Shown here: in pieces, positions 1 through 23,880 of the stretch | Layout of the letters: every line of letters begins with the position of its first letter | Position numbering within the stretch: the first letter of the stretch is position 1 | NCBI GenBank assembly: GCA_902499925.1 | Contig: GCA_902499925.1_4130.1 | From: Escherichia coli | GTDB lineage: Bacteria; Pseudomonadota; Gammaproteobacteria; Enterobacterales; Enterobacteriaceae | Reading direction: 5' to 3' (one strand) | Length of the DNA: 64,000 nucleotides | The notes under the pieces: generated by a model | Told to the model about the DNA's origin: nothing | Database searches by the model: none | What the model saw: only the letters and a program-made list of their open reading frames with translations | Program-made: the position numbers and the translations under genes

Positions 1-389
1 GTTATAACACTACTACATGAACTTAATGTATTGTTTTGGAATTCATTTTCTTCAATGTTATCAGTACTGGTATTGATGAATTGGATAGTATCTTGTTTCT
101 GATTAGACATTGAAACTAAAGTACAATCAGTATAAGGAGTGTACAAAAACGTCTCATTACTAATTGAACTATCATTAGTATATGATGGTTTGGTAATATA
201 AATCAAACGCATGATATCACGCTCAATACCCGATTTACGACTTTCCACTAAAGAAATCATATCTATATTTTTCATATGATCAACATTGACATGGAACTTT
301 TTGTTGAGAATTACATCTTTTGGAGAATTTTTATATGAAGATAAGATCTCATACATCTCAACTAATTCTCGTGCATTTAATAAACTCAT
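1..389 (-). CDS. Hypothetical protein, 3' end truncated by window edge (family A-like)
   Basis: ATG at ~387-389 overlaps stop of next gene (ATGA); open to window start; contains 'ENEFQNNTL'. Confidence 0.45.
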   Translation of the reverse strand, partial: MSLLNARELVEMYEILSSYKNSPKDVILNKKFHVNVDHMKNIDMISLVESRKSGIERDIMRLIYITKPSYTNDSSISNETFLYTPYTDCTLVSMSNQKQDTIQFINTSTDNIEENEFQNNTLSSCSSVI

Positions 390-814
390 GTTTTGTCTCT
401 TAATGAAAGAATATCCTTAGTATAAACTGAAACTGAAATATGATTATATTTCATCATTAATTTATACACATAAGAAGCTAGTACTAAATCGTAAATTAAT
501 TTAGTATCATACAGTACTCCGTATTGTAAAGCAAGTGAATCAATATCATCTTTACTTTCAATATCCAGAAATGTGCCGAAATATGTAGTACCGTAGAGAT
601 GAAAAGTGGAATTAATGCAATCAATGCATTCATTGTCCAATAGAGTAGATGCTGATGCCCTCGGTGAATCCCAAATAGTCACTGCGTGTATGCCCTCAAC
701 GAACAAATCTATCCATATTTTGTGTCGTTGTCTTTTTTGTTTTTTATATTTTTCTGGATTTGAAAGTGTAGTGTCAATTATATCCCATATGTATAAGCAT
801 TCATCTCTTGTCAT
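386..814 (-). CDS. Hypothetical protein (possible divergent family A member)
   Basis: Complete 142-aa ORF abutting neighbours on minus strand. Confidence 0.6.
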   Translation of the reverse strand: MTRDECLYIWDIIDTTLSNPEKYKKQKRQRHKIWIDLFVEGIHAVTIWDSPRASASTLLDNECIDCINSTFHLYGTTYFGTFLDIESKDDIDSLALQYGVLYDTKLIYDLVLASYVYKLMMKYNHISVSVYTKDILSLRDKT

Positions 815-1392
815 TATAGCACCTTATCCATTGCTGCATTTAATGCTTTTAAACGATCAACATTCAAAGTATTGAAGATGTACGTTCCTAAAATGTGGAA
901 ATCGAACTGGTTCTTTTTGTATGTGTGATAAATTAAACTACAAAAAACAACAGTACTAAGAACCTCTTCCGGTATAACGGTGCTCATCTGAAACAGTTCT
1001 TCATCAACTGTACTTGATTCTGGATTGATAGCTTTTAACTTATACTCTTCATCACCGAATAGTACTTTAATATTATATAAAACACCAACAGTACTAATAT
1101 GAAATGGATGGTGTGAAAAACTTCCATCATCATTAATTTGGATATCGGATCTAATCTCGCACTCTTCATTACTTTTACTATTATTTTTTACAATACAAAT
1201 ATTCCTGGCACCAGAAATAGTAAGAATACCGTGATCGTAATATTCTTTGGACATACATTTAGATGAAAATGACACATCACGGATGAGGTAATGTTTGTTA
1301 ATTTCTTTGGTACTACCAACAATGGATAACATTTTTGTACTGATATCATATAGCTGTTGGTGTCGGGCTGTCATATAACTATAAGCGTTCAT
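814..1392 (-). CDS. Family A paralog (EExxFQxS-motif protein), function unknown
   Basis: Motif 'DEELFQMSTV'; complete ORF overlapping neighbours. Confidence 0.75.
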   Translation of the reverse strand: MNAYSYMTARHQQLYDISTKMLSIVGSTKEINKHYLIRDVSFSSKCMSKEYYDHGILTISGARNICIVKNNSKSNEECEIRSDIQINDDGSFSHHPFHISTVGVLYNIKVLFGDEEYKLKAINPESSTVDEELFQMSTVIPEEVLSTVVFCSLIYHTYKKNQFDFHILGTYIFNTLNVDRLKALNAAMDKVL

Positions 1393-1963
1393 ATGTATCC
1401 TTGATGTTTTTGATTGCCGTGTGTAGCTCTTTTAATGTATCGGATTCACAGTTAATGAACTTACTATACATTACCAATTCACCAGTGTCAATAGCTTTTG
1501 CAGTTTCATAGCAAAGCATCATGTACTCAAACTCCTTGAAGTTGTCAAGTACTGATCTCTGGAAAATGTATGCTTCACGAATGTCTTCACTTTGATCTAG
1601 TTCTGGTGGAATTTCCAAATATGTATCATTCTCTACGTCATCAAAATTGGATTCGACAATTCGATTAATATCTTCGTGTAAAGCATTGACAAATATCATG
1701 TTTGGAGTAATGGAACCGATTTGCTCACTATGCCTTGATGTGCGGATATACATTGCCATAGTATCCCATGAACCTTTTTTCGTCGTTCCATAATCGTAAA
1801 CTTTATAAGACTCCAGTACTACTGAACCAAAACGATATGGTGATTTGCATTCAACTTTAAGACGATAATTTCCAATAGGCTCATGTTCAGTAATGTTGTG
1901 CTTTTCAGATAGTTCTGCAATGTCATGCATCAATTTCATAATTTGAATGTGTTCAGCTTGCAT
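1379..1963 (-). CDS. Family A paralog, function unknown
   Basis: Motif 'EAYIFQRSVLD'; complete ORF. Confidence 0.75.
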   Translation of the reverse strand: MQAEHIQIMKLMHDIAELSEKHNITEHEPIGNYRLKVECKSPYRFGSVVLESYKVYDYGTTKKGSWDTMAMYIRTSRHSEQIGSITPNMIFVNALHEDINRIVESNFDDVENDTYLEIPPELDQSEDIREAYIFQRSVLDNFKEFEYMMLCYETAKAIDTGELVMYSKFINCESDTLKELHTAIKNIKDTYERL

Positions 1964-2526
1964 TATAAGTCCTCTAATTTAACAGGTACATGTTCATTGA
2001 TGAACGTCTTAAGAGCCAGTACTAGATCTTCTAATTCTTCTGTACTGAATTTTAATATAGTTTTAAAGATTATCAATTCATTTCTTTCTATAATCTTTGG
2101 AATTTCATATGCTAACATAAGATTGCGAACAGTACCAGCGTTGTGTATGAGGTTCGCATTGAATAAAAGTACATCGTACTCGTCTTTTTTAATTTTATAA
2201 TTGTACTCTTCAATTACTTCATGTGTGTATGTATTCTTATAAGCAATTTTATTTTTATGAAATTTATAACCAACAGTAACACTATCATCATAAAATGTAG
2301 AACGATAATCTTGTTTTCTATCGCCGGACGAAATGATGTGTAATGCTGTGTATTTGTCCTCAACATCTAACTCAATGTTTGCATAACTGTTAACAGTTTC
2401 ATTCTTTAGGACGTTAATGTTATATTTCTCATTAACTTTAATGTACTGGCGTGAACCATTATCATCAATGAACTTAAAACAATGCTTTACCAACAATGTG
2501 ATTTCTTTAATTAATTCAGTACTCAT
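1963..2526 (-). CDS. Family A-like paralog (degenerate motif)
   Basis: Complete ORF in array; weak motif 'EYDVLLFNANLIHN'. Confidence 0.65.
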   Translation of the reverse strand: MSTELIKEITLLVKHCFKFIDDNGSRQYIKVNEKYNINVLKNETVNSYANIELDVEDKYTALHIISSGDRKQDYRSTFYDDSVTVGYKFHKNKIAYKNTYTHEVIEEYNYKIKKDEYDVLLFNANLIHNAGTVRNLMLAYEIPKIIERNELIIFKTILKFSTEELEDLVLALKTFINEHVPVKLEDL

Positions 2527-2613
2527 ATCTTCTCCTGTACTCTGTTAAAAGCGATTATAACACACCTGAATGCTCATGTAAAGCACTAAACACAAAAAGA
2601 CCCATAAGGGTCT

Positions 2614-3198
2614 TTATTTTGGTAAAACGCTGTCAATGTACGCTAGAGCCTCATCTCGGAGGTACGTTCCATCTATCGTTATGTAATAGTTCTTAGGGAT
2701 ATCACTACCAATCTTCTCGTAAATTTTCATACATGATATCACATCTTCATCACAAATGGTACTCAATTGAAACTGTACTTCATCAGTTAAAGGTACGATA
2801 TCATGTTTAGATGGGGGGTTGGTATTTTCATTCAAAACAATATCAAACAAATTAGGAGTATTCTTTGACGAAATGTAACGATGTTTACTACGAATTACCA
2901 TTCTCGACAGAGAAATACTGGAACTCCATCTTGGGTCCACATCTTCGTATGTTAACGCAATTAACATTTCATAATAATCTTGGAATTTCATTGATGCATA
3001 ATATGTTTTGTCCTCACCGTACATTCCAAATGATTTGAATTCAATGTCACCTACATTGTGTGTATCACTATCACTATTCACGAATTTTAACAGACTGTTG
3101 ATTAGTCTGATTAGAATATCATCTTTATTCATTATCAGATAGCTCCCTGTGCATGTTGTATAAATCTCTAAAGTCCTGATAGAAATCTTTTTCTTCAA
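2614..3198 (-). CDS. Family A paralog, function unknown
   Basis: Motif 'DEVQFQLSTI'. Confidence 0.75.
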   Translation of the reverse strand: MKKKISIRTLEIYTTCTGSYLIMNKDDILIRLINSLLKFVNSDSDTHNVGDIEFKSFGMYGEDKTYYASMKFQDYYEMLIALTYEDVDPRWSSSISLSRMVIRSKHRYISSKNTPNLFDIVLNENTNPPSKHDIVPLTDEVQFQLSTICDEDVISCMKIYEKIGSDIPKNYYITIDGTYLRDEALAYIDSVLPK

Positions 3199-3682
3199 GA
3201 ATATCTTTTAAACTAGGAATCTCATCCATAATCTCATCGATATCAGTTTCAATAGTAAAACCTGATTTATAATTTTGTAAGAGATAACTAAAAGCAACAA
3301 TGTAAAGAATTTCATTTGGTTTATGGATTAACATGTGTTGGAACATAACTGATTCTAAATCAGATTCAGTACAAAGGTCAGCATAACATGTATCGTTTGT
3401 GTCAATTCGTACTTTACTTGAATTTGGATTCCATGTAAAGCAATGTGTTCCAACTGTTCCCAAACATCCTACTCTTGTACTATCATTTGTTCCCAAAAAG
3501 ATATCAAAATACGTTTCATCTGTATAATCGTATTTTTGTACTTTACCTTTTTTAAGGCACAAATCATTATCCTTTCGAAAAGTTTTAGATGATAATGTAT
3601 CAATGATGCACATTAATGTTTTTGCAAATGCAATACAATGACGTAATTCAAGTCTATGGAAATTATAATTAGTAAAATTCAT
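3125..3682 (-). CDS. Family A paralog, function unknown
   Basis: Motif 'ESVMFQHMLI'. Confidence 0.7.
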   Translation of the reverse strand: MNFTNYNFHRLELRHCIAFAKTLMCIIDTLSSKTFRKDNDLCLKKGKVQKYDYTDETYFDIFLGTNDSTRVGCLGTVGTHCFTWNPNSSKVRIDTNDTCYADLCTESDLESVMFQHMLIHKPNEILYIVAFSYLLQNYKSGFTIETDIDEIMDEIPSLKDILEEKDFYQDFRDLYNMHRELSDNE

Positions 3683-4224
3683 AATTGTACCTTCAATATT
3701 TTATCAGCAATTGATATAACCTTCTCACTGAATACATTACCAATCTCAATCCTTATATACATAGCAGGTGGAATCTTTCCTTGAAGTGCATAATATGTTT
3801 GTATACCTAAGTACTCATTATTTGATAATGAAAATTTGATTCTCTCCATATCTATGTCTGATTTTGGTAAATCTAGTAGTTCATGGTGGTAGTCAACATT
3901 TTCAGTGTATATTTGATTTAAGTAATTTGAATGATCACTACTAATGTAGATGCTATCATCACGAATAATTACTTTATAATCAGAAGGTTCAAACTTATCT
4001 TTAGGCGAAAAGAAGACATCATCTATCTTCTCTTCTCGTATACCGAATAACAATTTGCCATCGTACTTTACATCAAGCATACCACCTAGAATAGTAATTA
4101 CACAATGTTCATCAATGTCATGACGTAAAGAACGAGTCTTGTATTTTGGGTTAATGAAAATTTTCATTAATTTTATACAAATGTCGGCAATGCATTTTAC
4201 ATTATCATTTTCTATGTACATCAA
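3679..4224 (-). CDS. Family A-like paralog (degenerate motif)
   Basis: Complete ORF in array, ATGA-type overlap with neighbour. Confidence 0.6.
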   Translation of the reverse strand: MMYIENDNVKCIADICIKLMKIFINPKYKTRSLRHDIDEHCVITILGGMLDVKYDGKLLFGIREEKIDDVFFSPKDKFEPSDYKVIIRDDSIYISSDHSNYLNQIYTENVDYHHELLDLPKSDIDMERIKFSLSNNEYLGIQTYYALQGKIPPAMYIRIEIGNVFSEKVISIADKILKVQL

Positions 4225-4699
4225 AAACCCTCTTTAATTCTTTTACATTTTTAATGAATACTTTCATTGCAGAGATCTCAAAAGATAATGATTTAAAATT
4301 GCAGTACTTTTTAAAGTACGACATAATGAATAGCATCTTGAGTTCTTTTTCTGTGTAAATTAAACTATTTTGAAAGTAACTTTCTTCTGATAAATCATCA
4401 AGAAACGGATATAAAACTCCATTTGTTCTCAAGAACATGATACCTTCACTCCATGATCTAAATGAAAGGTAATCAGTCTTACCACATTCATATAAGGAGT
4501 TTATCATTCCATCAATCATTAAGGAGAACTCAATACTGTATCCTAATCTTTGACACTTGTATCTCTTATCTTCTTTCTTTGTAATTACGAAGTGATGACC
4601 CAGTGAGTCTTTGTTATCGAAAATGAAATCAACTGTCTCTAAACACTCCTTAGCGAACTTCATAGTTTCTCTGTACTTTCGGTTCATTAGTCTCTCCAA
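4205..4699 (-). CDS. Family A paralog, function unknown
   Basis: Motif 'EESYFQNSLIY'. Confidence 0.75.
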   Translation of the reverse strand: MERLMNRKYRETMKFAKECLETVDFIFDNKDSLGHHFVITKKEDKRYKCQRLGYSIEFSLMIDGMINSLYECGKTDYLSFRSWSEGIMFLRTNGVLYPFLDDLSEESYFQNSLIYTEKELKMLFIMSYFKKYCNFKSLSFEISAMKVFIKNVKELKRVFDVHRK

Positions 4700-5100
4700 A
4701 CTTTACCAGGGAAGTGTTTCTCGTAGAACTCATCATCACTTAACATATAATCAGGTGTTTCTACTTCTATGGGTTTGTAGAATGTTTCTGGAATGTGTGT
4801 GATTTTATTTGGTTGTACTTTATGTTCGCGTAAAACCTTCTGTATAGCTCCTAGACGTTGTAAATCAATACAGGTGGGCAGAACTAAGCTGTACTGAAAT
4901 AGCTCATCAGGGGTCATTATAGATACATCCTTGGCTTGTTTGATTTTATTGTTGGCATCAATGAATATATCAAATCCAAGTACTGCATTATAGCTTACAT
5001 ATGTTGTTTTGTTTTTGTCAATAGCTGCACTTAAACTATATCCATATATTCCATGTTGGTCAACAATGCATCGTTGCATAATTTTAATCATTTCGAACAT
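4687..5100 (-). CDS. Family A paralog, function unknown
   Basis: Motif 'PDELFQYSLV'. Confidence 0.75.
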   Translation of the reverse strand: MFEMIKIMQRCIVDQHGIYGYSLSAAIDKNKTTYVSYNAVLGFDIFIDANNKIKQAKDVSIMTPDELFQYSLVLPTCIDLQRLGAIQKVLREHKVQPNKITHIPETFYKPIEVETPDYMLSDDEFYEKHFPGKVWRD

Positions 5101-5446
5101 AATTTACCTCGTATGTGTTATAATTCCACGTTTTAACACTATCCATTTGTATATCCTGAACTTCATGGAAATATTTAAGTACCTTCTGGTATTCCATTAG
5201 TTCGTATACATCTTCAGTATTGACAGTGCTCTCCTGAAACAATTCCTCTTCTGATAAAGTACTATAATCAGGGATTTTTATTTCAGAATATATCTCATTC
5301 ATATATGAATCATTTTGGTAAATCTGTAGATAAAACTGATTATATTCAGGGATATAGGTTACGAAATGGTTCTTGATGAATTCATATCTTGAAGCAAAGC
5401 AATCATTGCCATCCGTCATGTACTGAATTGTTGTTGTATTATGCAT
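5084..5446 (-). CDS. Family A paralog, function unknown
   Basis: Motif 'EEELFQESTV'. Confidence 0.75.
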   Translation of the reverse strand: MHNTTTIQYMTDGNDCFASRYEFIKNHFVTYIPEYNQFYLQIYQNDSYMNEIYSEIKIPDYSTLSEEELFQESTVNTEDVYELMEYQKVLKYFHEVQDIQMDSVKTWNYNTYEVNYVRND

Positions 5447-5921
5447 TCAAATAATCCACGCATTTATGGTATACATCTAAATCTAAAAAGAATCGTTGTT
5501 TGTATTTGTAATGATGAAGTAGTGCACCATAAAGTAATATAGCATTAAGTACTTTTGCATCATGAATACAAGACCCTTGGAAGTACATTTCTTCAGTCAT
5601 GAAAACTAACTCATTGTAAGGGATAAGCACTGAATCTCTAAATGTATCAATGTTAATCTTCAAATCGGACCCTTGGCAATATGAAATATATTCACCTCTG
5701 TAATGAAAGTCATTATCGTCAAAGTACTCAGCATATACTTGATTGTCCCTATTATTTTTAAAGGCAAGTCTTCCTTTGGTTGAACTGAATTGGTCATATT
5801 GGAACATTCCACCAAAAGGAATTCCACCGAAAGGTTGGGGACTTCTGAACTCCTTTGCAATGCGATGAATGTTAGATGCAAATTCTAAAACACCATCGTA
5901 ATCATATTCTGTTGTAATCAT
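5439..5921 (-). CDS. Family A paralog, function unknown
   Basis: Motif 'EEMYFQGSCI'. Confidence 0.75.
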   Translation of the reverse strand: MITTEYDYDGVLEFASNIHRIAKEFRSPQPFGGIPFGGMFQYDQFSSTKGRLAFKNNRDNQVYAEYFDDNDFHYRGEYISYCQGSDLKINIDTFRDSVLIPYNELVFMTEEMYFQGSCIHDAKVLNAILLYGALLHHYKYKQRFFLDLDVYHKCVDYLNA

Positions 5922-6397
5922 AGACCATTTTTCTCCATGTACTCAATGATTTCATCTACGAAGTTTAAATCCATATAGAATCTATCATTTGCGTCATTGA
6001 GTTCATCTTTAAGTACTGTAAAAATTGTAGAACTAAACACGATTCTCTCATTGTACAAAGTACTGTACTGGAAGAATTCTTCTTCTGATCTAACATTAAA
6101 TGTGTCATATTCATCATCAACATCAGATCTAGGATGATAGTACTTAAAACTATCAGATGTATGGAAACAATATGAGATAAAATCCCCTGATGGTGCATCG
6201 TCAAGTACACGAATACCACAGAAATTCTCATCTGTAGTATGCAACAAATTGCTATTCATTGACAAATAATTTTTGTACGCATAAAGTGTGCATCGTGGGA
6301 GAATTATATTCTCTTTAACTGTTACAAGGAACTTATGAAGTTTAATGATATTTTGTGCGATTTTTTGTGCATTGCTAAATGATAGGTCTTTGGACAT
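5918..6397 (-). CDS. Family A paralog, function unknown
   Basis: Motif 'EEEFFQYSTLY'. Confidence 0.75.
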   Translation of the reverse strand: MSKDLSFSNAQKIAQNIIKLHKFLVTVKENIILPRCTLYAYKNYLSMNSNLLHTTDENFCGIRVLDDAPSGDFISYCFHTSDSFKYYHPRSDVDDEYDTFNVRSEEEFFQYSTLYNERIVFSSTIFTVLKDELNDANDRFYMDLNFVDEIIEYMEKNGL

Positions 6398-6456: not shown

Positions 6457-7047
6457 TCAAGAGTTCTCACGAAGTTCTACCATTTCTTTCCATACTAAAT
6501 GGTAATCTTCTAAGTCCAGATAGAAGTCTTCATTTAAGTGCTCATATAAGTACTTGTACATGAATAGTACACCTAAATTGTATTCAGTAGTAAGCAATGA
6601 TTGTTGGAAGTAGTTTTCTTCATTTAGTTCTATATCCATGAACTCAAATCTACCTAGACCTTTTAATGTACGTATCTCAACATGTGAAGTATCTGTTTTA
6701 CTGAAGCACATGAATCCACCTCTAAATTCGGGATCATATTCACATTCATACTGTCCACTGTTATTATAGAAATCTCTATTACCATCCTTATCTTTTGGCT
6801 TAACAACTGATACGTGAAGGTCGTCATCTTTGTACATTGTACGTTCTGGCGTTTTCACACATTTTAACTTATTTTCTTTAATGTACTTGATAATATCAAT
6901 TATATCTTGTGCAGTACTGATTGCTGCCTCGAACGTATCCAACTTAAGATGATTGTATAGAGTTCCCTCGTTCTTTATTTTATCTAACATACTAACCTCA
7001 TAGTTCATACATCTTTGATTTGAATTGCATTGGTCCACCAACTTCAC
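6457..7047 (-). CDS. Family A paralog, function unknown
   Basis: Motif 'EENYFQQSLL'. Confidence 0.75.
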   Translation of the reverse strand: MKLVDQCNSNQRCMNYEVSMLDKIKNEGTLYNHLKLDTFEAAISTAQDIIDIIKYIKENKLKCVKTPERTMYKDDDLHVSVVKPKDKDGNRDFYNNSGQYECEYDPEFRGGFMCFSKTDTSHVEIRTLKGLGRFEFMDIELNEENYFQQSLLTTEYNLGVLFMYKYLYEHLNEDFYLDLEDYHLVWKEMVELRENS

Positions 7048-7336
7048 ATGGATAATTTTCCATAATACGATTCAAAAGTATCTGGTACTGTTGTAGTACT
7101 TCAATTTCCAAATGTATACTACTATCCAGTACTAATGACTCCTGAAACAATTCACCTCTATCTAAACCTGAAAAATCATTTATAGTTAGCATTGGCTTAT
7201 CATTTGTACGCAATGTAAATGATTCCTCATTTCGGATTAATGTACAGAATTCATTATGTTTTCTGTTGTAATCCATTTTAACCAATAATAACTTGGTGTG
7301 AGTTGCGTACATTATTTTTACTAATTCAGTCTTCAT
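6998..7336 (-). CDS. Family A paralog, function unknown
   Basis: Motif 'RGELFQESLVLD'. Confidence 0.75.
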   Translation of the reverse strand: MKTELVKIMYATHTKLLLVKMDYNRKHNEFCTLIRNEESFTLRTNDKPMLTINDFSGLDRGELFQESLVLDSSIHLEIEVLQQYQILLNRIMENYPCEVGGPMQFKSKMYEL

Positions 7337-7685
7337 AACGGAATAAAATTCTCCTGTACTGCTCCGGCTTAGTACTCAATCTCTTCACTGGATAATTGTC
7401 GAAGATCCTTTTCATTTCTTTCTGGATTAAACAAAGAAAATCAAAATCACAATAGTATTTTTTATCCCATACTAAACTTTCTTGAAACAACTCATCTTCT
7501 TGCATTAGCGTAGTATCAATTGTATCTTCACGTGTATTTGAGTACGCTTCATGACATTGAAAACCATCCTCGGATAATCCTAATGTATATGCCGCCATTT
7601 CAAACATATCATCATTTGTCTTTAACGAAAGTAAACAACAAACGTATTTTTTCGTTGTGTAGTAAGTAATGCTAATGGTATTCAT
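7326..7685 (-). CDS. Family A paralog, function unknown
   Basis: Motif 'EDELFQESLVWD'. Confidence 0.75.
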   Translation of the reverse strand: MNTISITYYTTKKYVCCLLSLKTNDDMFEMAAYTLGLSEDGFQCHEAYSNTREDTIDTTLMQEDELFQESLVWDKKYYCDFDFLCLIQKEMKRIFDNYPVKRLSTKPEQYRRILFRYED

Positions 7686-8880: not shown

Positions 8881-9019
8881 CTTGTTCCTGATACTGTGTA
8901 CCCAAATACATCAGTACTTTTAATTCTTTGAATTCAGTACCATATGAGTCGATTTGCATCATTCTTTTAGAGTATATACCGAATAGTTTATCAATATCAT
9001 CTTGGTTTATTATTTTCAT
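8828..9019 (-). CDS. Family B paralog embedded in family A array
   Basis: 63-aa ORF with 'LGTQYQEQ' motif. Confidence 0.55.
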   Translation of the reverse strand: MKIINQDDIDKLFGIYSKRMMQIDSYGTEFKELKVLMYLGTQYQEQVVKEYIDSLQKDIRYVQ

Positions 9020-12738: not shown

Positions 12739-12739
12739 A

Positions 12740-15656: not shown

Positions 15657-16211
15657 TTAGCACCCTTTAACAACTTTTGAAATGTAATCTTCTAATGCAC
15701 CAATGTTCTTTGTATTCGTTCGAACTAAAAGATAACTTAAATTCTCGAACTCCTGAACATAATGCTTAACAGCGTACATGCATCGTAATTCAAAATCTGT
15801 ATGAACCGTTTTGTACTGAAATAACATCTCTTCTGAAGCATCTAAAAGCTCTGTAGCTTGTTCTGTACTGAACTTAAAGGGATTCTGTACTCCTGAACTA
15901 AAACACTTTTGTACGTTCGTCTGGACACCCTGTGATAGATATAATCCTGTACTACCATCTTGTGTTGATATCGAATTGAAACCATTACTTGCAACCATTA
16001 AATCTGAACTCAATACAAATAATAATTTATCTTCCTTATGAATTAATAAATCTGACTTCAGGGATTTTATTCCTGTACTGGTTATATCACCTATACTAAG
16101 ATTGTCACTGAACTTCTCAGCGTTGTTCGCAATGCTCTGGACAAGATTTTTTAATCTCTTAATGGCACTTCTGTCTTTTTCTAATGTATCTAATAAACTC
16201 ATTGAACTCAT
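15657..16211 (-). CDS. Family A-like protein
   Basis: Motif 'EEMLFQYKTV'; start moved to ATG preceded by AAGGAAAG (track ORF extends to 16283). Confidence 0.6.
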   Translation of the reverse strand: MSSMSLLDTLEKDRSAIKRLKNLVQSIANNAEKFSDNLSIGDITSTGIKSLKSDLLIHKEDKLLFVLSSDLMVASNGFNSISTQDGSTGLYLSQGVQTNVQKCFSSGVQNPFKFSTEQATELLDASEEMLFQYKTVHTDFELRCMYAVKHYVQEFENLSYLLVRTNTKNIGALEDYISKVVKGC

Positions 16212-16221
16212 TGTACTTTCC

Positions 16222-16566
16222 TTACATATTTGTACTGAACAAAACGGAACTTTGAATGCCATTAATCGACACTTCATGTACATATATATTTTGTCTGAAT
16301 ACCTGAAGCAATTGAACTAAACTCTGTTGCATAATAATATGCATCGCTAAATTATCAAAGGCCGTTTCGTATTGGAATCGTGCAGCATCATCTTCTATGA
16401 AATTCGGAACTTGGACTGGATTTTCAAAATTTGTCCTTGTACTGAACTGTACATCATTGTCCTGTACCTTAATACCATATGAATTATCTTTGTTATCAAC
16501 TACATCAAATTCAATTAAACTACCATCTTTACTGACGTTTACTATATAAACTGAAAATCTACTCAT
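16222..16566 (-). CDS. Family A-like protein
   Basis: Motif 'DAARFQYETAF'. Confidence 0.6.
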   Translation of the reverse strand: MSRFSVYIVNVSKDGSLIEFDVVDNKDNSYGIKVQDNDVQFSTRTNFENPVQVPNFIEDDAARFQYETAFDNLAMHIIMQQSLVQLLQVFRQNIYVHEVSINGIQSSVLFSTNM

Positions 16567-17081
16567 AATCCTATTTCCTTTAAATCTTCCAAAAATGTTT
16601 CATAATCACTTAAGGAAAAAAAGATATCCGTATCGATGTTCGCATCTAATACATTATACAAATTCTGCATCTGTAACACATCAGGAGCATCAATCAATGA
16701 TTGCTGGAAATAGGCAGCTTCATCTTCCAAAATATCTCTGAATGTTCTCTCTCGTACTCTGTGGTGTACTGAATTGAATATTGATTTCTCATCCTTAAGC
16801 ATTGGTAGGTATCGAATGTACATGTGTTCTCTTAGCTCTGGACTGATGGAACCCCTGAACTGTAACACGTATTCGAAGCACATAGCAACATCCTGAAGGT
16901 AATTGGCACTGTAATTATTGCTGTAAACAATCTTATGACTTCTGAACTCATCATCATTTCTGAACCAATTGTCACCTACTTTGGTGTACTTATGACTAAG
17001 CAATCCACCCTCTAACGCTTTGATGATCTTCAAAATGTTGTGTGCAAATGCATATGATGTATTGTACTTGGCCTGATACAT
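16563..17081 (-). CDS. Family A paralog, function unknown
   Basis: Motif 'EAAYFQQSLID'; start moved to MYQAKY... matching paralog N-termini (track ORF extends to 17204). Confidence 0.7.
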   Translation of the reverse strand: MYQAKYNTSYAFAHNILKIIKALEGGLLSHKYTKVGDNWFRNDDEFRSHKIVYSNNYSANYLQDVAMCFEYVLQFRGSISPELREHMYIRYLPMLKDEKSIFNSVHHRVRERTFRDILEDEAAYFQQSLIDAPDVLQMQNLYNVLDANIDTDIFFSLSDYETFLEDLKEIGL

Positions 17082-17293
17082 GTGTGCCTCATCTGCCTCA
17101 TTTGGCGTTAAAATATTCACTGAAATGATTATAACACAAAAGCACCACGATGTTAAGCACTCTGTTGTCAAAATCATCTTGTGATGCAGGATGCAAGGAC
17201 GCATTGATGTTAAAATTCACTATATCATTGTGGAATTGGTATGTGAACAAATCAAACTTCGTATGCCTTTGTTTGATATCATCGGCGGTCATA

Positions 17294-17902
17294 TTATATA
17301 TTCAACCCTTTAACAATGGAAATAAATTCTTTGTATACATTTTCAGGTAAAGCTCTACTACCATAAAGAACACTAAATTCAGGTAACATATCCGAAATCT
17401 CTTTCGCTAAATTTATTTCATCCCTGAACATTTGCACAGGCATGATATCCTGTACCAATGATAACTGAAAGAAAAATGATTCAATATCTTCATGCACCTC
17501 TGAATTTAAATAAATCTCTTCTGGAAACTGGTCTGTACTGTAATAATAAAATACGTCAATTCTTTTTTCATTATTTTGTACAAGAGGTAAATTTCTTTCG
17601 TCTCTCTTATTAATATTTGTTTTCCATGACTCAATGTTATTCGGAACCCAAAACTCATAAGGTGTTTTCTCTCCTGAAATATTATCCAGCTTCAATCCAT
17701 AATATTCACCTTCGCCGTACTTCTGCTTCAAAACAATACCTGTACTACTGATGTTTACAATGTACGTATCAACAATCCCCTCTGCGGTAAAAGGAATATT
17801 TAACTCTGAACCTTCAGGGTACTTAGCATTGAATGCATCTAATGCTTTACTAAGCACTGGAATTGCACTTGTACTGTACTTCATTAATTGATCTATGTTC
17901 AT
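17294..17902 (-). CDS. Family A paralog, function unknown
   Basis: Motif 'ESFFFQLSLVQD'. Confidence 0.7.
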   Translation of the reverse strand: MNIDQLMKYSTSAIPVLSKALDAFNAKYPEGSELNIPFTAEGIVDTYIVNISSTGIVLKQKYGEGEYYGLKLDNISGEKTPYEFWVPNNIESWKTNINKRDERNLPLVQNNEKRIDVFYYYSTDQFPEEIYLNSEVHEDIESFFFQLSLVQDIMPVQMFRDEINLAKEISDMLPEFSVLYGSRALPENVYKEFISIVKGLNI

Positions 17903-18483
17903 TTTAATGCCCCTGTAATCATACTGAAATTTGAACGATACATATCGTACACTGTACTTTCTTTCTTGTGCACAATGAAATCATAAAGATCGACGAATGC
18001 AGGAATAATAATCTTGAATGATTTATTCTTGTACGTCCCAAACTCAACGGTGCTCAATTTTGCAACGAGCATAGCAACAAAGATTTCTTCTGGACTATGC
18101 AATGTACTGTACTGAAAATAATCCTCTGCACTTATTTCACCCATTGCACTAATATCTTGTACTTGTAATGAAATTTTAAGATAATAATAAGAAAAATCAT
18201 TCTCTGATTTGTTTTGTATTTTGTATTGGTCTATGGGTACATCTCTCATGAACCATAAACGGTCCTGACCATAAAAAGGAATGATTGAATTTGGGGAACC
18301 CAAAAAAACTTCTTCTCTATCAATATCCTTTAACTCAATTTGCATACTGGATGAATTGGCAATAATTAATTCATTAAAAATGTAATGAACCTTGTGTACC
18401 ATCTCTTGTACTGAATTGAAATCATCTGGTATTTTAAAATTTTCCATAGGTATCTCCTTAAAAATGATTACACATTGTACCAT
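17899..18483 (-). CDS. Family A paralog, function unknown
   Basis: Motif 'AEDYFQYSTLH'. Confidence 0.75.
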   Translation of the reverse strand: MVQCVIIFKEIPMENFKIPDDFNSVQEMVHKVHYIFNELIIANSSSMQIELKDIDREEVFLGSPNSIIPFYGQDRLWFMRDVPIDQYKIQNKSENDFSYYYLKISLQVQDISAMGEISAEDYFQYSTLHSPEEIFVAMLVAKLSTVEFGTYKNKSFKIIIPAFVDLYDFIVHKKESTVYDMYRSNFSMITGALK

Positions 18484-18519
18484 GCATTTGTACTGGTGTC
18501 AAACAAAAAAGCCCATATC

Positions 18520-19017
18520 TTACGATACAGGCATGTTTATTTGAATTTCATTGTACAAATCATCAATATATAGACATGAAAACGATAAACTTTCTTTAAC
18601 TATATTGTTGTGATAAAGCATTTTAAACACTATATAGAAAAATAAATCAATATCATCATGTACTAAATTCTGCTGGAACCACCACTCTTCTGTTAAATCT
18701 TGTGCATTAAAATCATCAGGAACTTCAATTGACGACATATCAACATCTTCTTTGTACTCAAACCACATGTCGTCATTCGGATAACGTTCATGTTTTTCTG
18801 GGTAACAATTGCTGGGATTAAATGCTAAAATATAAAATGTCGTCGCAGAATGTTCTTTATTAAAAAATGAATTATTCCACACCTGATACCTTTCACCAAC
18901 ATCAATCTCTTTTGATACTGATGTTATTGCACATAATGTACGATATATTGTTTCTATTTTGTGAACAAATTTAAAGGCTGCATCTAAACTGAACTCTAAA
19001 TCAGACATGCGGTGCAT
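18520..19017 (-). CDS. Family A paralog, function unknown
   Basis: Motif 'EEWWFQQNLVHD'. Confidence 0.75.
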   Translation of the reverse strand: MHRMSDLEFSLDAAFKFVHKIETIYRTLCAITSVSKEIDVGERYQVWNNSFFNKEHSATTFYILAFNPSNCYPEKHERYPNDDMWFEYKEDVDMSSIEVPDDFNAQDLTEEWWFQQNLVHDDIDLFFYIVFKMLYHNNIVKESLSFSCLYIDDLYNEIQINMPVS

Positions 19018-19337
19018 AAAATTATCTCAACTAAAATAAGAACGGTATTGAATTCGAGGCAACCTTTGATACCTTGATTGTACATGTACTTTGCTACTAC
19101 ATATTTCTGTACTAAATTATAATTATTAAATTCCTCAAAATTGTAATTTAGAATGAAATTTGTACTCAAAAATAACTTATGCATCTCTAATGCACTCTGA
19201 TAATATTTGTACAACTCACTGATATCAATACTTTGTAAATCACTTTGTTCATATGTATGATAAGGAATGGCGTCAATTTCAATATTATTAAACCATTCTC
19301 TTAACTTATTAATATCAAATGTATTATTCAGCTTCAT
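18996..19337 (-). CDS. Hypothetical protein
   Basis: 113-aa ORF, no family motif. Confidence 0.45.
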   Translation of the reverse strand: MKLNNTFDINKLREWFNNIEIDAIPYHTYEQSDLQSIDISELYKYYQSALEMHKLFLSTNFILNYNFEEFNNYNLVQKYVVAKYMYNQGIKGCLEFNTVLILVEIILCTACLI

Positions 19338-19890
19338 AACTCAATACCTCCATTAAGCACTCATAAACACCATCAATCGCATAAGCACAAAAACTGAAAT
19401 TAATTTTGTTATTCTTGTGTAATGGACTATTGTATACTGTACTCATTATGACATTATAAAATAACAAACGCACTGGTACAAGCATTGAACCTTGGAAAAA
19501 TTCTTCCTCTGATTTATATGTATTGTACTCTATTGCTTTGTTCGTTTCTGTATCATATTTTACCATTACTAACGGGGCATTTTTATTATACCATGCGTAC
19601 TCTAAATCATTCTTTCCAATAACAGCACCAGGGGCAAAATCCAAAAGACTAATAACACTACGGGCATTTGGGGTATCAGGTGTATTGAATCGTTTATCAA
19701 AATGTCTCGTGCACGCAATATATGTATTGTACTTCGATGGAATAATACCAATACATTTGTGGATGTGACGCTTGTAATCTTTCTGTGCATTATATAAGGC
19801 TGCAACAATACAAGCTAACTTTTGTCCCATAAGGATTGCATTAGCGTAGGTGTACTGAATTTCATTGTACTCACTGTACGTCGATGTCAT
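19324..19890 (-). CDS. Family A paralog, function unknown
   Basis: Motif 'EEEFFQGSMLV'. Confidence 0.75.
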   Translation of the reverse strand: MTSTYSEYNEIQYTYANAILMGQKLACIVAALYNAQKDYKRHIHKCIGIIPSKYNTYIACTRHFDKRFNTPDTPNARSVISLLDFAPGAVIGKNDLEYAWYNKNAPLVMVKYDTETNKAIEYNTYKSEEEFFQGSMLVPVRLLFYNVIMSTVYNSPLHKNNKINFSFCAYAIDGVYECLMEVLSYEAE

Positions 19891-20182
19891 AATACGCTCC
19901 TACCTCATAATCTTTCTTGCTTTGGAATTCATTAACGACTTTCTGTATATTTCTTAATGTTACCATGTCATGTCCGTACATGTCAACCACCAATTGCATT
20001 TGGAAAAATTCTTCTTCAGATAATGTATTAAAATCTATAAAATAATCCGTAACAACCTGTGCGTCTAAATTTGCCATGTACCATTGATTGGTATCGACCT
20101 CTTTAACCAAATTCCATGCATCTGAATCGGATTCTAATTCTACATATATTAATGTTAATGTATAAAGCATTTTATACTTCAT
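19871..20182 (-). CDS. Family A paralog, function unknown
   Basis: Motif 'EEEFFQMQLVVD'. Confidence 0.75.
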   Translation of the reverse strand: MKYKMLYTLTLIYVELESDSDAWNLVKEVDTNQWYMANLDAQVVTDYFIDFNTLSEEEFFQMQLVVDMYGHDMVTLRNIQKVVNEFQSKKDYEVGAYYDIDVQ

Positions 20183-20732
20183 AACTGTATCCTTGCATTA
20201 AAAGATCATAAGCAATATCAACTAATTCTAAACGAATGAAAAATTTTAAATTATCTTTCAATGGATTCAAATGCATTGTACTAAACAACATAAGATACTT
20301 CATTTGATTTGTATTGTATATTAGGGATGTCTGAAATACTTCTGCTTCATTGTAAGGATCAATGAATTTTATACCTTCTTCACTGTAATCCGTTTTGGAA
20401 TTCTGATATATAAAATAATCATCACCAGCATTATACCACAAATAACCTTCAAAACTAGAATCAAATTCTGAATTTTCATTTCGCATTAAAGGTGATACTG
20501 AAATTGGATTTGAACCAACTGTTGCACAAACCTCAAGGAAAGCATCTTCACTTCCCTTAACTTCCTCTTTGATTTTATCATTGTACTGACCTGCAAAACC
20601 AGCTTTTACTTCCAAATATAAACTACTACCAACTTTATTAATTCTTAAAAGGGAACTCTGTACTGTATTCGCATTATTCAGCACAAACACTATTGTGCAA
20701 ATCTTATGTACCAATAACTGAATATCATTCAT
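20172..20732 (-). CDS. Family A paralog, function unknown
   Basis: Motif 'EAEVFQTSLIY'. Confidence 0.75.
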   Translation of the reverse strand: MNDIQLLVHKICTIVFVLNNANTVQSSLLRINKVGSSLYLEVKAGFAGQYNDKIKEEVKGSEDAFLEVCATVGSNPISVSPLMRNENSEFDSSFEGYLWYNAGDDYFIYQNSKTDYSEEGIKFIDPYNEAEVFQTSLIYNTNQMKYLMLFSTMHLNPLKDNLKFFIRLELVDIAYDLLMQGYSYEV

Positions 20733-20733
20733 A

Positions 20734-21063
20734 TTATACCCTTGTGCATTTAAGCACTGTAACTAAACCTTTTGCGTTCTTGAAATGCATTAACGATAAT
20801 GATGCATCAACGTATTGTAATGATACAATTACATCTTCTGATGTGTTCTTGAATAAAAATTCCTGTACTGAATTCTCACCAAAATAAATGTACTTTGTGG
20901 ACTCAATTTGCAAATACGGAATTTCTGTACTATGTAAAAAGATATCAATTTTATCATTGTTTTGTAATCTGCAATCAAATTGATATACTTCATAATCAGC
21001 GGCCTGTACTGTATTAGAGAACATTGATAAAATAAATGTTAGAGCTAAAATAATTTTATTCAT
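20734..21063 (-). CDS. Putative secreted/periplasmic small protein
   Basis: N-terminus MNKIILALTFILSMFSNTVQA-ADYE looks like a cleavable signal peptide. Confidence 0.6.
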   Translation of the reverse strand: MNKIILALTFILSMFSNTVQAADYEVYQFDCRLQNNDKIDIFLHSTEIPYLQIESTKYIYFGENSVQEFLFKNTSEDVIVSLQYVDASLSLMHFKNAKGLVTVLKCTRV

Positions 21064-21074: not shown

Positions 21075-21257
21075 TTAATTTGGTGGATTTGGATGTAATA
21101 AATGATCTATATAATTTAAATGTTCTATTGTAACTAATGAAAGATAATAATTGTAATCATCAATACCACCCTTTAAATGTATATTGTAATACATCTTGAT
21201 ACTTACTAATAAAGAATCATTTAAATCATTTATTGCTTTTGTATTAACGTCTTTCAT
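21075..21257 (-). CDS. Hypothetical small protein
   Basis: 60-aa ORF. Confidence 0.3.
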   Translation of the reverse strand: MKDVNTKAINDLNDSLLVSIKMYYNIHLKGGIDDYNYYLSLVTIEHLNYIDHLLHPNPPN

Positions 21258-21396: not shown

Positions 21397-21786
21397 CTAA
21401 TCGTGCCATTTAATAGGATACTCCGTTCCATTTATTGTATAAGATATAATCCATCCGTAATGAATAGGACTATTCTTTTCTCCTTTAGGAATAAAATATA
21501 AAGATGTACTAGGATTATAACTGAATAAATCTTTATTGTCAAATGTAAAATGAGATAACGTTATCTTCCTTGAACTTGGACTAATAACATTCTTAACACC
21601 AAACACGGTATCTTGATATTTCTCTGAAAATTCAAACAATGCATCTGTAATTAAATCATTGAATTCTATACATAATGGTTTAAAAGAACCATCATTATCT
21701 TTGAATTCCTTATATAAAGAGCTTCTTGTATTCAAAAGAAATATTACTTTTTTAAGATCCTGAACTATTTCTGGATTCATATTCAT
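21397..21786 (-). CDS. Hypothetical protein
   Basis: 129-aa ORF. Confidence 0.5.
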   Translation of the reverse strand: MNMNPEIVQDLKKVIFLLNTRSSLYKEFKDNDGSFKPLCIEFNDLITDALFEFSEKYQDTVFGVKNVISPSSRKITLSHFTFDNKDLFSYNPSTSLYFIPKGEKNSPIHYGWIISYTINGTEYPIKWHD

Positions 21787-22003
21787 TTATCTCATCCTGT
21801 AACTTAAGCATCAAAATTTGCATATTAATTTTTTGTACAAGGTGATTGAGAAATTTCTGTACTGTATCTTCTTGTTCTTTTGACCCAAGATAAAATAACA
21901 TATTAAATTCCGATAACCTCAGAGCAAAATCGTCATCTCCCCCTTGTAAACAAAAATCCCTGTACTTTGATGCATACAAATAACGGTTTATTTTTTTGTA
22001 CAT
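21752..22003 (-). CDS. Family B paralog
   Basis: Motif 'LGSKEQED'. Confidence 0.55.
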   Translation of the reverse strand: MYKKINRYLYASKYRDFCLQGGDDDFALRLSEFNMLFYLGSKEQEDTVQKFLNHLVQKINMQILMLKLQDEINEYESRNSSGS

Positions 22004-22031: not shown

Positions 22032-22343
22032 TTATATGTCAATTTCAATGATCCTCCCTGACATACCTTGTATTAGCTTATCATACATATCGAGCATCAC
22101 TTTTTGAATACTAATTAATACTGGCATCGTGCAAATATCAATGTCGTATATTAAGCTGTACTGGAATAATTCCTCTTCCTGCATTTGTACTAAATTAGGT
22201 AAAAGATAATTGTCTGCCTCTTCATCCTGGTACTTGAAATGCATAACGCCATCCTTTTTGTACAAAAGAATGTCAATATCACCTAACTCTTCTGCATAAC
22301 CAAAAATACATATACTCGATGTTTTTGCTATATTAAATTTCAT
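22032..22343 (-). CDS. Family A paralog (short form)
   Basis: Motif 'EEELFQYSLIYD'. Confidence 0.75.
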   Translation of the reverse strand: MKFNIAKTSSICIFGYAEELGDIDILLYKKDGVMHFKYQDEEADNYLLPNLVQMQEEELFQYSLIYDIDICTMPVLISIQKVMLDMYDKLIQGMSGRIIEIDI

Positions 22344-22352: not shown

Positions 22353-22676
22353 TTATATGTGGAATTCACATACGTGTTGAACAAAATTCTTTGGAAGATG
22401 ACAATGTGTAATCATCTGCTTTTGTACTTCCTTCATATCTTCGAATGTAAATCCTAAAGAATCATCATGTACTAACAAGTACTGAAACTCTTCTTCTTCA
22501 GAGATAGAACATAAATTCGGTACTGAAATTGTTTTTGTTTTTCTTGCACCTAATTTCCAATGAAAAGAATTATTGCATTTTCTGTACTCAAATATCTTCA
22601 ACCCAGAACCTGTATTAAAATCAGCTACTACAATGTAACATGAATTCTTACGTACAATACAATTGAACTTACGCAT
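22353..22676 (-). CDS. Family A paralog (short form)
   Basis: Motif 'EEEEFQYLLVHD'; start moved to MRKFNCIV (track ORF to 22703). Confidence 0.7.
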   Translation of the reverse strand: MRKFNCIVRKNSCYIVVADFNTGSGLKIFEYRKCNNSFHWKLGARKTKTISVPNLCSISEEEEFQYLLVHDDSLGFTFEDMKEVQKQMITHCHLPKNFVQHVCEFHI

Positions 22677-22921
22677 TATCTCCACCTCTCTCCGTCTGTA
22701 CAAGAGTACTGGTACGTTGTCGTTAGGGTAGGAACCATGTTTGTAATGGGCATATTGTTAACAATAACCGTAACAGGCATAAGAATCGTCTCTTCTCTAC
22801 TCTGTCCTGTCCTTGTGCAATTCATCTTCTGCATTTCATCTGAATCCATGAAATACAATACAAATGGTGCAATCCCAAGAACAATACACAAGACGATAAG
22901 GAAATTTAAAAAATTTAACAT
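22676..22921 (-). CDS. Putative small membrane protein
   Basis: N-terminal ~24 strongly hydrophobic residues (LNFLNFLIVLCIVLGIAPFVLYF). Confidence 0.4.
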   Translation of the reverse strand: MLNFLNFLIVLCIVLGIAPFVLYFMDSDEMQKMNCTRTGQSREETILMPVTVIVNNMPITNMVPTLTTTYQYSCTDGERWR

Positions 22922-22990
22922 AATTTTTACCCTCTATTTGAACGCTCAAAAAGTACAGGTACTATAGCACTAAAGAAAAGTACTGTCAAG

Positions 22991-23356
22991 CTAGTATTGC
23001 ACTGTTCTAATGAAAGTACCTGAACTCATGGATTTAAGCTTATGAACCTCTTCCTGTATACCCTTGAGCAACTCTAAAGGCATTGGTACATCATGTACTA
23101 AGCTGTACTGAAAGTATTCTTCTTCAGATAAAGTACTAACATCTGGGACGCCAATTTTAGTTAGATAATCTTGATGTGTTGACCAATAAATTATATCTTC
23201 AGTACAATTGTACTCCCCATATACTGAACAATATTGATGAATATCTTTCCTGTACCCTTGAGCAATAAAGAACTTATCTACGGCATTAATAGAACTCACT
23301 TCGATTGTTACAGTACTTGAGCTTGTTTTTCCTTTATTATGCATATTAATCCCCAA
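22991..23356 (-). CDS. Family A paralog (short form)
   Basis: Motif 'EEEYFQYSLVHD'. Confidence 0.75.
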   Translation of the reverse strand: MGINMHNKGKTSSSTVTIEVSSINAVDKFFIAQGYRKDIHQYCSVYGEYNCTEDIIYWSTHQDYLTKIGVPDVSTLSEEEYFQYSLVHDVPMPLELLKGIQEEVHKLKSMSSGTFIRTVQY

Positions 23357-23532
23357 ATTAGATATCGAACACTATCAGCTTGATAGTTAGTTCCTACTGT
23401 GTGTTTTAATATTAACTCATCTTTCAGTACTGAACATTCTGCATTAGATATAGGAAGTGAATTAATTCTTTGAATTTCTGGTCGCAACATACCGCGAATC
23501 TTGCGATAATCTTCGTATGATAATCTTTTCAT
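23308..23532 (-). CDS. Family B paralog
   Basis: Motif 'VGTNYQAD'. Confidence 0.6.
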   Translation of the reverse strand: MKRLSYEDYRKIRGMLRPEIQRINSLPISNAECSVLKDELILKHTVGTNYQADSVRYLIWGLICIIKEKQAQVL

Positions 23533-23535
23533 GGT

Positions 23536-23880
23536 TTAATACTCAATAATGTGTTCTTCATAATCACCATTAGGCTCCTGTTTAGCTTCTTTCATTAGTA
23601 CTATCATCTTATGTACTAATGGCATAGGAAACTCTAAATCCCATACTAATGATTCCTGAAAGTATTCCTCTGGTGATAAAGTACTTAAATCTTTAATATC
23701 AACGTGCTTGTATATTTTATTTTCGTAATTAACAAATGATATATATAAATCATTAATATAAGAATCATACGTAATTGTGAATGGCTTACCCTTGTAGTCC
23801 ATTACATCTCTACATAGACTACTTTTGATATATATATGTTCATAGGATTTATATACCTTGAGTTGTATATTAGTTTTCAT
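23536..23880 (-). CDS. Family A paralog (short form)
   Basis: Motif 'PEEYFQESLVWD'. Confidence 0.75.
   Translation of the reverse strand: MKTNIQLKVYKSYEHIYIKSSLCRDVMDYKGKPFTITYDSYINDLYISFVNYENKIYKHVDIKDLSTLSPEEYFQESLVWDLEFPMPLVHKMIVLMKEAKQEPNGDYEEHIIEY

Follow-up and report, generated by a model that had tools for sequence, protein, structure and literature searches.

A stretch of 64,000 nucleotides (nt) from an Escherichia coli assembly (GCA_902499925.1, contig GCA_902499925.1_4130.1; the window, meaning this whole stretch of DNA) carries on its minus strand a tandem array of small, strongly diverged paralogous genes, here termed family A, whose products share the signature [ST]-E-E-x-[YFH]-F-Q-x-S-[TL]-[ILV]-[YH]. 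Judged by DNA identity, the window is part of an Asteriusvirus-type (121Q/PBECO4-like) E. coli jumbo phage, with positions 9000-14000 sharing 98% identity with Escherichia phages fEgEco12 and WPEC3 and 85-97% identity with ~30 other coliphages of 350-385 kb (121Q/PBECO4/SP27/slurp01 type, genus Asteriusvirus), in which all genes under the DNA match are annotated as “hypothetical protein”. The analysis describes family A as an old, individually maintained set of paralogs built on one apparently new fold, and this structural and evolutionary description is put forward with high confidence. The functional reading, in which variable surfaces on a conserved scaffold give each copy a target of its own and make the array a permanent stock of binders for host takeover or anti-defence, is more tentative, its chances being put clearly below even, while the explanation taken as a whole falls only a little short of an even chance.

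A strict form of the motif, E.[FYW]FQ.[SN][TLCM][VIL], gave 15 matches on the minus strand of 1-24 kb and none in 20 shuffles. A hidden Markov model (HMM) of the motif region, iterated over all open reading frames (ORFs) of the window, converged on 35 members with E values from 1e-9 to 1e-20; a broader HMM brought in 3125-3682 (hhalign 96.9% over 145 columns) and an ortholog profile-profile comparison brought in 9193-9726 (91.9% probability), so that firm membership stands at 37 minus-strand ORFs between 0.8 and 23.9 kb. About three others (3679-4224, 1379-1963 and 52626-53285) are possible members by profile-profile comparison, and no support for membership was found for the ORFs at 386-814, 1963-2526, 7691-8293 and 16222-16566 inside the array. 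The preliminary description of this DNA had counted ~45 paralogs and seen the motif in nearly every minus-strand ORF; the family is real, but the count was 10-20% too high, and family A accounts for about 40 of the 57 genes in 0.4-24.1 kb. The distant ORF at 52626-53285, also named as a member at that stage, is retained only as a possible one; F-M replaces F-Q in it, a variant that also occurs in the bona fide member P0111.

The members are listed below (all on the minus strand, marked -; E values are from the HMM). The long class comprises proteins of 145-213 amino acids (aa) and the short class proteins of 100-122 aa, within an overall range given as 100-210 aa; RaK2 is a Klebsiella jumbo phage and family B a second family of small genes that is described further below.

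814-1392 (-): long class, 192 aa, EELFQMSTV; E 2e-13; reciprocal best hit to a RaK2 ORF
2614-3198 (-): long class; E 1e-12; real start probably internal, giving ~172 aa (orthologs 172 aa)
3125-3682 (-): long class, degraded motif VMFQHMLI; found with the broad HMM; hhalign 96.9% over 145 columns
4205-4699 (-): long class, ESYFQNSLI; E 4e-17
4687-5100 (-): short class; E 2e-13
5084-5446 (-): short class; E 3e-11
5439-5921 (-): long class, EEMYFQGS; E 3e-18
5918-6397 (-): long class; E 3e-16
6457-7047 (-): long class; E 5e-13
6998-7336 (-): short class; E 7e-16
7326-7685 (-): short class; E 1e-18
8284-8880 (-): long class; E 2e-12
9193-9726 (-): variant motif EEQCFQLSC; hhalign with the ortholog profile 91.9%
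9723-10169 (-): long class; E 5e-14
10135-10608 (-): long class; E 2e-14; no full-length ortholog in slurp01
10608-10922 (-): short class; E 1e-11
10919-12738 (-): tandem sub-cluster of four long-class members (10919-11362, 11340-11828, 11831-12271 and 12268-12738); 30-44% mutual identity; DNA repeat D1
10919-11362 (-): long-class member modelled with AlphaFold; predicted local distance difference test (pLDDT) 87.6, predicted template modelling score (pTM) 0.83
12922-14354 (-): four short-class members (12922-13338, 13268-13633, 13630-13986 and 13986-14354); E 1e-14 to 3e-20; up to 51% identity
13630-13986 (-): short-class member modelled with AlphaFold; pLDDT 88.5
14411-14495 (-): remnant, the duplicated 5' end of gene 13630-13986, 27 codons and then a frame-divergent tail; 96% identity to 13904-13988 (repeat D10)
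14493-14966 (-): short class, longest-ORF start probably over-extended; E 2e-12
15657-16283 (-): long class, EEMLFQYKTV; E 1e-9
16563-17204 (-): long class; E 1e-12; real start probably near 17081 (PHROG match from residue 42)
17294-17902 (-): long class; E 1e-10
17899-18483 (-): long class; E 1e-9
18520-19017 (-): long class, EEWWFQQNLV; E 4e-15
19324-19890 (-): long class; E 3e-14
19871-20182 (-): short class; E 5e-12
20172-20732 (-): long class; E 3e-13
22032-22343 (-): short class; E 1e-14; reciprocal best hit to RaK2
22353-22703 (-): short class, EEEEFQYLLV; E 7e-14; reciprocal best hit to RaK2
22991-23356 (-): short class; E 5e-14
23536-23880 (-): short class, the array's last gene before the family B array; E 5e-13
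3679-4224 (-): possible member, motif degraded; hhalign 64.9% with the ortholog profile
1379-1963 (-): possible member (REAYIFQRSVLD); hhalign 41.8%, aligned at the motif columns
52626-53285 (-): possible outlying member (SEEEEFMYSTVID; F-M variant); hhalign 37.2% at the motif columns

The array also holds 20734-21063 (-), a 109-aa protein with a signal-peptide-like start (MNKIILALTFILSMFSNTVQA), and 22676-22921 (-), an 81-aa protein with one membrane-helix-like segment; neither belongs to family A. The start/stop overlaps first noticed in the gene packing were borne out, with 39 of the 56 junctions in the array overlapping and only 8 leaving more than 30 nt.

F-Q is invariant in all 37 firm members. 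The signature was also followed beyond the window by searching 1.84 billion representative proteins exhaustively with a profile, which returned 138 family A clusters, ~100 of them only 20-45% identical to any window paralog and with the signature kept. Over the 138 clusters, conservation amounted to 100% for F, 98% for Q, 84% and 86% for the two E, 90% for S, 96% for [TL] and 91% for [ILV], with Y, F and H totalling ~74% at the residue before F. The residue after Q varies: among the 37 members it is Y in 8, E in 8, Q in 5 and N in 4, with L also among the dominant residues and G or A in only 4. In the same 37 members the invariant F is encoded by TTT in 22 and TTC in 15 and the invariant Q by CAG in 23 and CAA in 14, while the conserved Ser is split between AGY (17) and TCN (11); codon choice at the invariant residues is that of the family in general. 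Since synonymous codons vary freely at these positions, conservation acts on the protein, and a nucleotide-level (DNA or RNA) signal or low complexity behind the motif is ruled out. Outside the motif the sequences are barely recognisable as related; most paralogs align over a core of 30-70 aa only and the N-terminal regions are divergent, in agreement with the preliminary description.

No known domain was found to account for the motif either. Searches of Pfam, NCBIfam and PADLOC gave no match at curated cutoffs, and no weak match that recurred, among the 35 members scanned. A family A profile found nothing among PDB sequences, and a Foldseek comparison with predicted viral structures retrieved only uncharacterised proteins of phages 121Q, SP27, RaK2 and GAP32 and, weakly, of Serratia phage BF (tblastn with the HMM consensus sequence was too insensitive to be useful). 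Within the PDB-sequence and predicted-viral-structure searches, the modelled fold of family A is therefore without a recognisable relative and apparently new.

Structure was predicted with AlphaFold2 for one protein of each class, using an input alignment of the window's own paralogs only, and gave a pLDDT of 87.6 and a pTM of 0.83 for the long member 10919-11362 and a pLDDT of 88.5 and a pTM of 0.84 for the short member 13630-13986. The long members align over their full length, with an N-terminal helix, a variable, strand-rich and insertion-laden middle, the motif, a helix, an “F-Y-L-D” strand and a C-terminal helix; the short members are without the terminal helices, and the two classes are related with an hhalign probability of 90.5%. 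Both models contain the same predicted domain, taken to be common to all members, which is compact and made up of an antiparallel sheet, a pair of helices and a strand that closes it. The motif accounts for a short helix (residues 100-106 in the long and 65-74 in the short protein, pLDDT >90), after which come a tight turn and a longer helix, both helices being packed on the sheet. As modelled, the motif is the first of two helices together with the turn into the second, and so part of the folded core, neither a linker nor a cleavage site. A single paralog family with the motif as structural core, the more parsimonious reading from the outset, fits these two independent and confident models. 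In this arrangement [ST]-E-E would plausibly cap the N-terminus of the motif helix and the Asp/Asn at +7 would cap the helix after it; judged from the secondary structure, core contacts would come from F and from the [TL]-[ILV]-[YH] triplet. The “hydrophobic segment” reported after the motif is present as an amphipathic helix and is not a membrane segment. Membrane proteins were rejected more generally, as no transmembrane-length hydrophobic segment was present in any member except two artefactual N-terminal ORF extensions, and family A is described as a set of soluble proteins.

The modelled position of the motif also bears on its likeness to a protease site, which the preliminary description had mentioned as weak speculation. 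A 3C/TEV-like (TEV, tobacco etch virus) protease cutting E-E-x-Y-F-Q-x-S after the Gln would free a C-terminal peptide of ~40 aa. Many members do match ENLYFQ-S/G, the site cut after its Q, with E at P6, an aromatic residue at P3, F at P2 and Q at P1; Q occupies P1 in 98-100%, E the positions -4 and -3 in 84-86% and Y/F/H the position -1 in ~74%, and a few members (such as EEMYFQGS, 5439-5921) fit ExxYxQ(G/S) exactly. At P1', however, 33 of 37 members have a bulky or charged residue and only the other 4 a small one, the motif is an ordered mid-domain helix (pLDDT >90), and both flanks of Q co-fold into one compact domain. Relatives of this phage have two annotated proteases, one of the T4 prohead type and one ClpP-like. 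To our knowledge, neither is of a Gln-specific type, and no cognate protease is known. The likeness is best taken as coincidental, and processing at this site is considered extremely improbable.

With regard to distribution, 20 distant clusters were sampled; no cellular homologs were present among them, and they came from RaK2-like jumbo-phage genomes, phage-sized contigs in E. coli assemblies and metagenomic contigs. On these sequence comparisons, family A is restricted to RaK2-like jumbo phages and constitutes an ancient multigene family. The representative genomes are as follows.

fEgEco12: at least 42 family A members; the array runs on to the left of the window and lies at roughly 27-55 kb of the 375 kb linear record
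Klebsiella phage RaK2: at least 31 members; syntenic, adjoining the same Dam methyltransferase and cytidylyltransferase
Uncultivated contig with a guanine-plus-cytosine (GC) content of 28.5%: at least 21 members in 20 kb; essentially no DNA similarity to isolates
Pectobacterium phage CBB: ~5 members (gp053-gp058, 8985-12604); the cluster starts 64 nt past the 22,456-bp terminal repeat; F-Q is retained and Ser is replaced by Leu or Met

The uncultivated RaK2-like lineage was observed as a 27.9 kb Logan contig, SRR15674957_670, the same sequence being present in SRR30815946; 2% of a queried 7.9 kb segment matches isolated phages at the DNA level, and, arranged as in the window, at least 21 genes of family A and 11 of family B occupy 20 kb of the contig. 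For 13 of 36 window members a closer relative was found in RaK2 than in their own genome, 7 of these as reciprocal best hits, and therefore much of the expansion is older than the split of the Escherichia and Klebsiella genera. The tandem sub-clusters at 10919-12738 and 12922-14966 are later, Asteriusvirus-specific additions. Three Asteriusvirus genomes have 31 of 39 orthogroups in common, 8 of 39 being absent from at least one.

Rates of divergence were estimated against phage slurp01 by the Nei-Gojobori method on reciprocal best hits (family A, n=32; other window genes, n=80; medians, with Mann-Whitney tests). Amino-acid identity was 72.5% for family A and 91-95% for the other genes (p 2e-5), non-synonymous divergence (dN) 0.167 and 0.03-0.055 (p 1e-4), synonymous divergence (dS) 0.585 and 0.14-0.18 (p 8e-7), and their ratio (omega) 0.246, with a maximum of 0.58, and 0.21-0.30 (p 0.42). 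Family A orthologs are thus three to six times as divergent as neighbouring genes. By segment, omega was 0.30 in the N-terminal part, lowest in the motif (0.19) and 0.29 in the C-terminal part. Positive selection at the level of whole genes and of segments was rejected, all of these omega values lying below 0.6. These estimates indicate that each copy is individually retained under purifying selection. They also bear on the view of the array as neutral or selfish duplicates in slow decay, to which the degraded motifs of some array ORFs and the one gene remnant would correspond; omega is, however, ~0.25 in all 31 of the 31 pairs of orthologs, no reading frame is interrupted, one-to-one orthologs have been kept across genera and two folds are predicted with confidence, so that a non-functional expansion is judged highly improbable.

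The closest pair of paralogs shares 51% aa identity, and among DNA repeats only the 85-nt gene-start remnant (14411-14495) exceeds 90% identity. Recent duplication was rejected on these two grounds. Because the closest paralogs stand at 51%, 31 of 39 orthogroups are common, the repeat is single and omega is low, the array is best described, from sequence, as an old and largely stable repertoire with deep alleles and modest turnover and no burst of duplication. The rapid diversification and ongoing duplication suggested at first sight do not hold as stated, given these values, the 13 of 36 members nearer to RaK2 and an omega of 0.25 with none above 0.6. What was borne out is the divergence of orthologs (72.5% identity against 91-95% in the flanks) and one recent recombination remnant, the previously reported 5' gene fragment, which is a 96% identical copy of 13904-13988. 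Along the window, dS to slurp01 is three to four times higher at 1-24000 than at 24000-64000 at equal omega. The raised dS suggests deep allelic lineages or recombinational exchange of diverged alleles confined to the array. Separately, 10946-11090 and 11385-11529, the 3' motif and C-terminus of adjacent paralogs, share 82% DNA identity over 145 nt in genes whose proteins are 41% identical overall, for which gene conversion is possible; protein P0004 of phage CMSTMSU resembles a chimera of these two genes.

Some indications on expression and localization come from related phages. In CBB, RpoD-like promoters are concentrated in a region of short hypothetical genes that its authors regard as an early host-takeover region (PMC5259590), and these phages rely on host RNA polymerase together with phage sigma factors (PMC11895373, PMC7318152). 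In the window, the best sigma70-type matches with an extended -10 lie on the coding strand in the array's few intergenic gaps, as listed here.

22961-22989 (-): sigma70-like promoter with extended -10, TTGACA-17-TATAGT with TG, in an array intergenic gap; consensus match only
18474-18532 (-): terminator-like hairpin (18532-18511) followed by a sigma70-like promoter (18502-18474), in the gap 18483-18520; consensus matches only
17128-17156 (-): sigma70-like promoter, TTAACA-17-TATAAT with TG, upstream of gene 16563-17081 as counted from its likely real start; consensus match only

In addition, a perfect 12/12 sigma70 consensus (TTGACA-17-TATAAT) was observed at 21514-21542 (-), inside the ORF 21397-21786 and upstream of 21075-21257 and 20734-21063.

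Paralogous internal proteins are known from jumbo phages and an inner body from phAPEC6 (PMC7247149), so that family A might be thought of as packaged and ejected proteins comparable to the T4 internal proteins or the inner-body paralogs of phiKZ. The virion mass spectrometry of phAPEC6, in which gp442c is a family A member, speaks otherwise, as none of the 62 detected proteins lies between gp347 and gp549 (PMC7247149). Because no phAPEC6 virion protein maps to gp348-gp548, the interval that holds the family, family A is not virion cargo; packaging is largely refuted by this 0 of 62 and has next to no probability left.

In terms of charge, family A has a median isoelectric point (pI) of 4.84 and a net charge of -9.4, compared with 6.91 and -0.1 for the other window genes, a significant difference. 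A pI below 5 was found for 58% of the members, the range extending up to 8.9, and the most extreme protein (11340-11828) has a net charge of -27 over 162 aa. Such values, together with absence from the virion and an early-type region, would suit a family of acidic nucleic-acid mimics that, like Ocr, ArdA and Arn, act as decoys and inhibit the proteins of restriction or of other DNA-binding defences. No similarity of fold or sequence to these three proteins was found, and DNA mimicry across the family is regarded as rather unlikely.

An early, cytoplasmic and host-directed role for family A is plausible and is favoured by virion absence, acidity and an early-type region near the genome end. The host-takeover or anti-defence role proposed in the preliminary description is to that extent plausible too, being drawn from the same features. 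In the mechanism envisaged, host RNA polymerase would transcribe the array genes early on, in polycistronic blocks, from the region adjoining the terminal repeat; the variable surface of each copy, carried on the common scaffold, would bind a different host target, for example a defence or nucleic-acid-handling protein; and the whole array would serve as a standing repertoire of host-takeover or anti-defence binders. Several observations weigh against this mechanism. No homology ties any family A member to a function or partner, an arms race is not apparent from gene-wide omega, promoter-like sites show no overall enrichment (65 against an expected 63.6), and two members are basic (pI 8.5-8.9), so that acidity is not universal. 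Moreover, helix capping can account for [ST]EE and the Asp at +7 but not for the 98% invariance of Gln, which hints at a shared functional site over a pure scaffold.

The last point leads to the main rival view, that F-Q, with E-E and S, forms a shared docking or active site that engages one partner, be it a hub protein of host or phage or a small ligand, while the variable remainder gives cargo or specificity, the proteins acting as adaptors, inhibitors or sponges on one hub. The near-absolute invariance of Gln is easier to explain in this way: F and Q are 100% and 98% invariant over 138 clusters that are otherwise 20-45% identical, a span of 12 residues contains five conserved polar positions, more than a purely structural core would usually have, F-Q is kept in CBB where Ser is lost, and the motif segment has the lowest omega (0.19). 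The motif nevertheless lies in an ordered helix and turn (pLDDT >90) and not in a flexible peptide, and forty proteins competing for one site is unparsimonious, so that a common docking site is held to be unlikely, if less so than DNA mimicry. The boldest form of the idea, in which F-Q is a shared functional site on an unseen fold and the array, possibly with family B, a germline-encoded repertoire of ~40 binders or adaptors directed against host defence and nucleic-acid-handling proteins, is considered unlikely to about the same degree. Bacterial sliding-clamp-binding peptides follow QL[SD]LF or QLxLxL, to which the Q-x-S-L-[VIL]-[YFW] of family A is loosely similar, as a lead only. The clamp-binding motif was rejected as a candidate: Q1 and S3 fit, but position 2 is variable rather than Leu, position 4 is Thr in 49%, position 5 is I, L or V and never F, the CBB variants misfit and the structural context is ordered.

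Previous records of these proteins are scattered. PHROGs divides family A into more than 10 unannotated groups (phrog_9317, 12674, 15629, 13866, 28549, 38467, 28680, 31297, 19795, 34017 and others), some of which cross-match each other; the single superfamily, its signature, fold and copy number are not recorded there. No description of the family or functional data on it were found in the literature searched (the 224-genome jumbo-phage survey of Iyer et al. 2021, PMC7824862, the CBB, phAPEC6 and Sharanji genome papers and a phage transposon-sequencing (Tn-seq) preprint). The CBB genome paper recognised 22 paralogous ORFs in total (PMC5259590).

Other features of the window include two further tandem families. 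Family B consists of 29 minus-strand genes encoding proteins of 63-92 aa with an L-G-T-N-Y-Q-E core, at 23870-29621 and, within the family A array, at 8828-9019, 8997-9224, 21752-22003 and 23308-23532; the preliminary description had rightly set these four interspersed genes apart, and they belong to the 29-gene family. No Pfam match was found for family B, and a truncated relative of family A was rejected (hhalign probability <1%). The two families are interleaved here and in fEgEco12 (31 copies of family B), slurp01 (33), RaK2 (11) and the uncultivated lineage (11); no family B gene was found in the CBB segment. The third family, at 55391-63870 (+), encodes proteins of ~380 aa with matches to RCC1 repeats (beta-propeller), which are counterparts of the “DNA condensation protein” virion proteins of phAPEC6 and occur 13 in a row in slurp01. 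GC skew switches sign near 50 kb, and from about there large plus-strand RCC1-type genes replace the run of small minus-strand genes. A 213-aa protein at 33446-34087 (-) matched the protein kinase model Pkinase of Pfam weakly and below threshold (E 0.003, 17.5 bits versus a cutoff of 31.7). No tRNA genes were found anywhere in the window.

Family A makes up ~7% of the genes in widespread E. coli and Klebsiella jumbo phages, several of which have been proposed for therapy, and recognition of the superfamily offers an entry point into the 80% of these genomes that lack annotation. The hosts are tractable, which allows copies to be tested one by one for toxicity, partners and inhibition of defence. 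If the copies are inhibitors, they would represent dozens of new anti-defence proteins on one scaffold; if F-Q is a functional site, phages would possess their own version of the terminal multigene families known from large eukaryotic DNA viruses, and one that engages its targets by a new mechanism.

Among known systems, Ocr, ArdA and Arn are small, strongly acidic, early and non-structural phage proteins to which family A can in part be likened; they are single-copy, whereas family A is a 40-copy array whose members are not all acidic. Bacillus phage G has a lineage-specific set of ~35 zinc-ribbon proteins (Iyer et al. 2021, PMC7824862), likewise a small domain expanded in a jumbo phage to a similar copy number; the zinc ribbons have a known fold with a predicted nucleic-acid-binding role, in contrast to family A, which has no recognisable domain. 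The multigene families of large DNA viruses, such as MGF110/360/505 of African swine fever virus and the host-range expansions of poxviruses, also consist of dozens of diverged tandem paralogs near a genome terminus, vary in copies between isolates (as do 8 of 39 family A orthogroups, and total numbers from ~5 in CBB to 42 in fEgEco12) and are non-structural with a presumed role at the host interface. The differences are that family A belongs to a bacterial virus and has unrelated sequences and folds, that its copies are ancient and under individual purifying selection instead of arising by recent “accordion” amplification, and that its link to host range is presumed only. Paralog expansion in large viral genomes is thus of an already known kind, and what is new here is the apparently new fold together with an unusually sharp signature.

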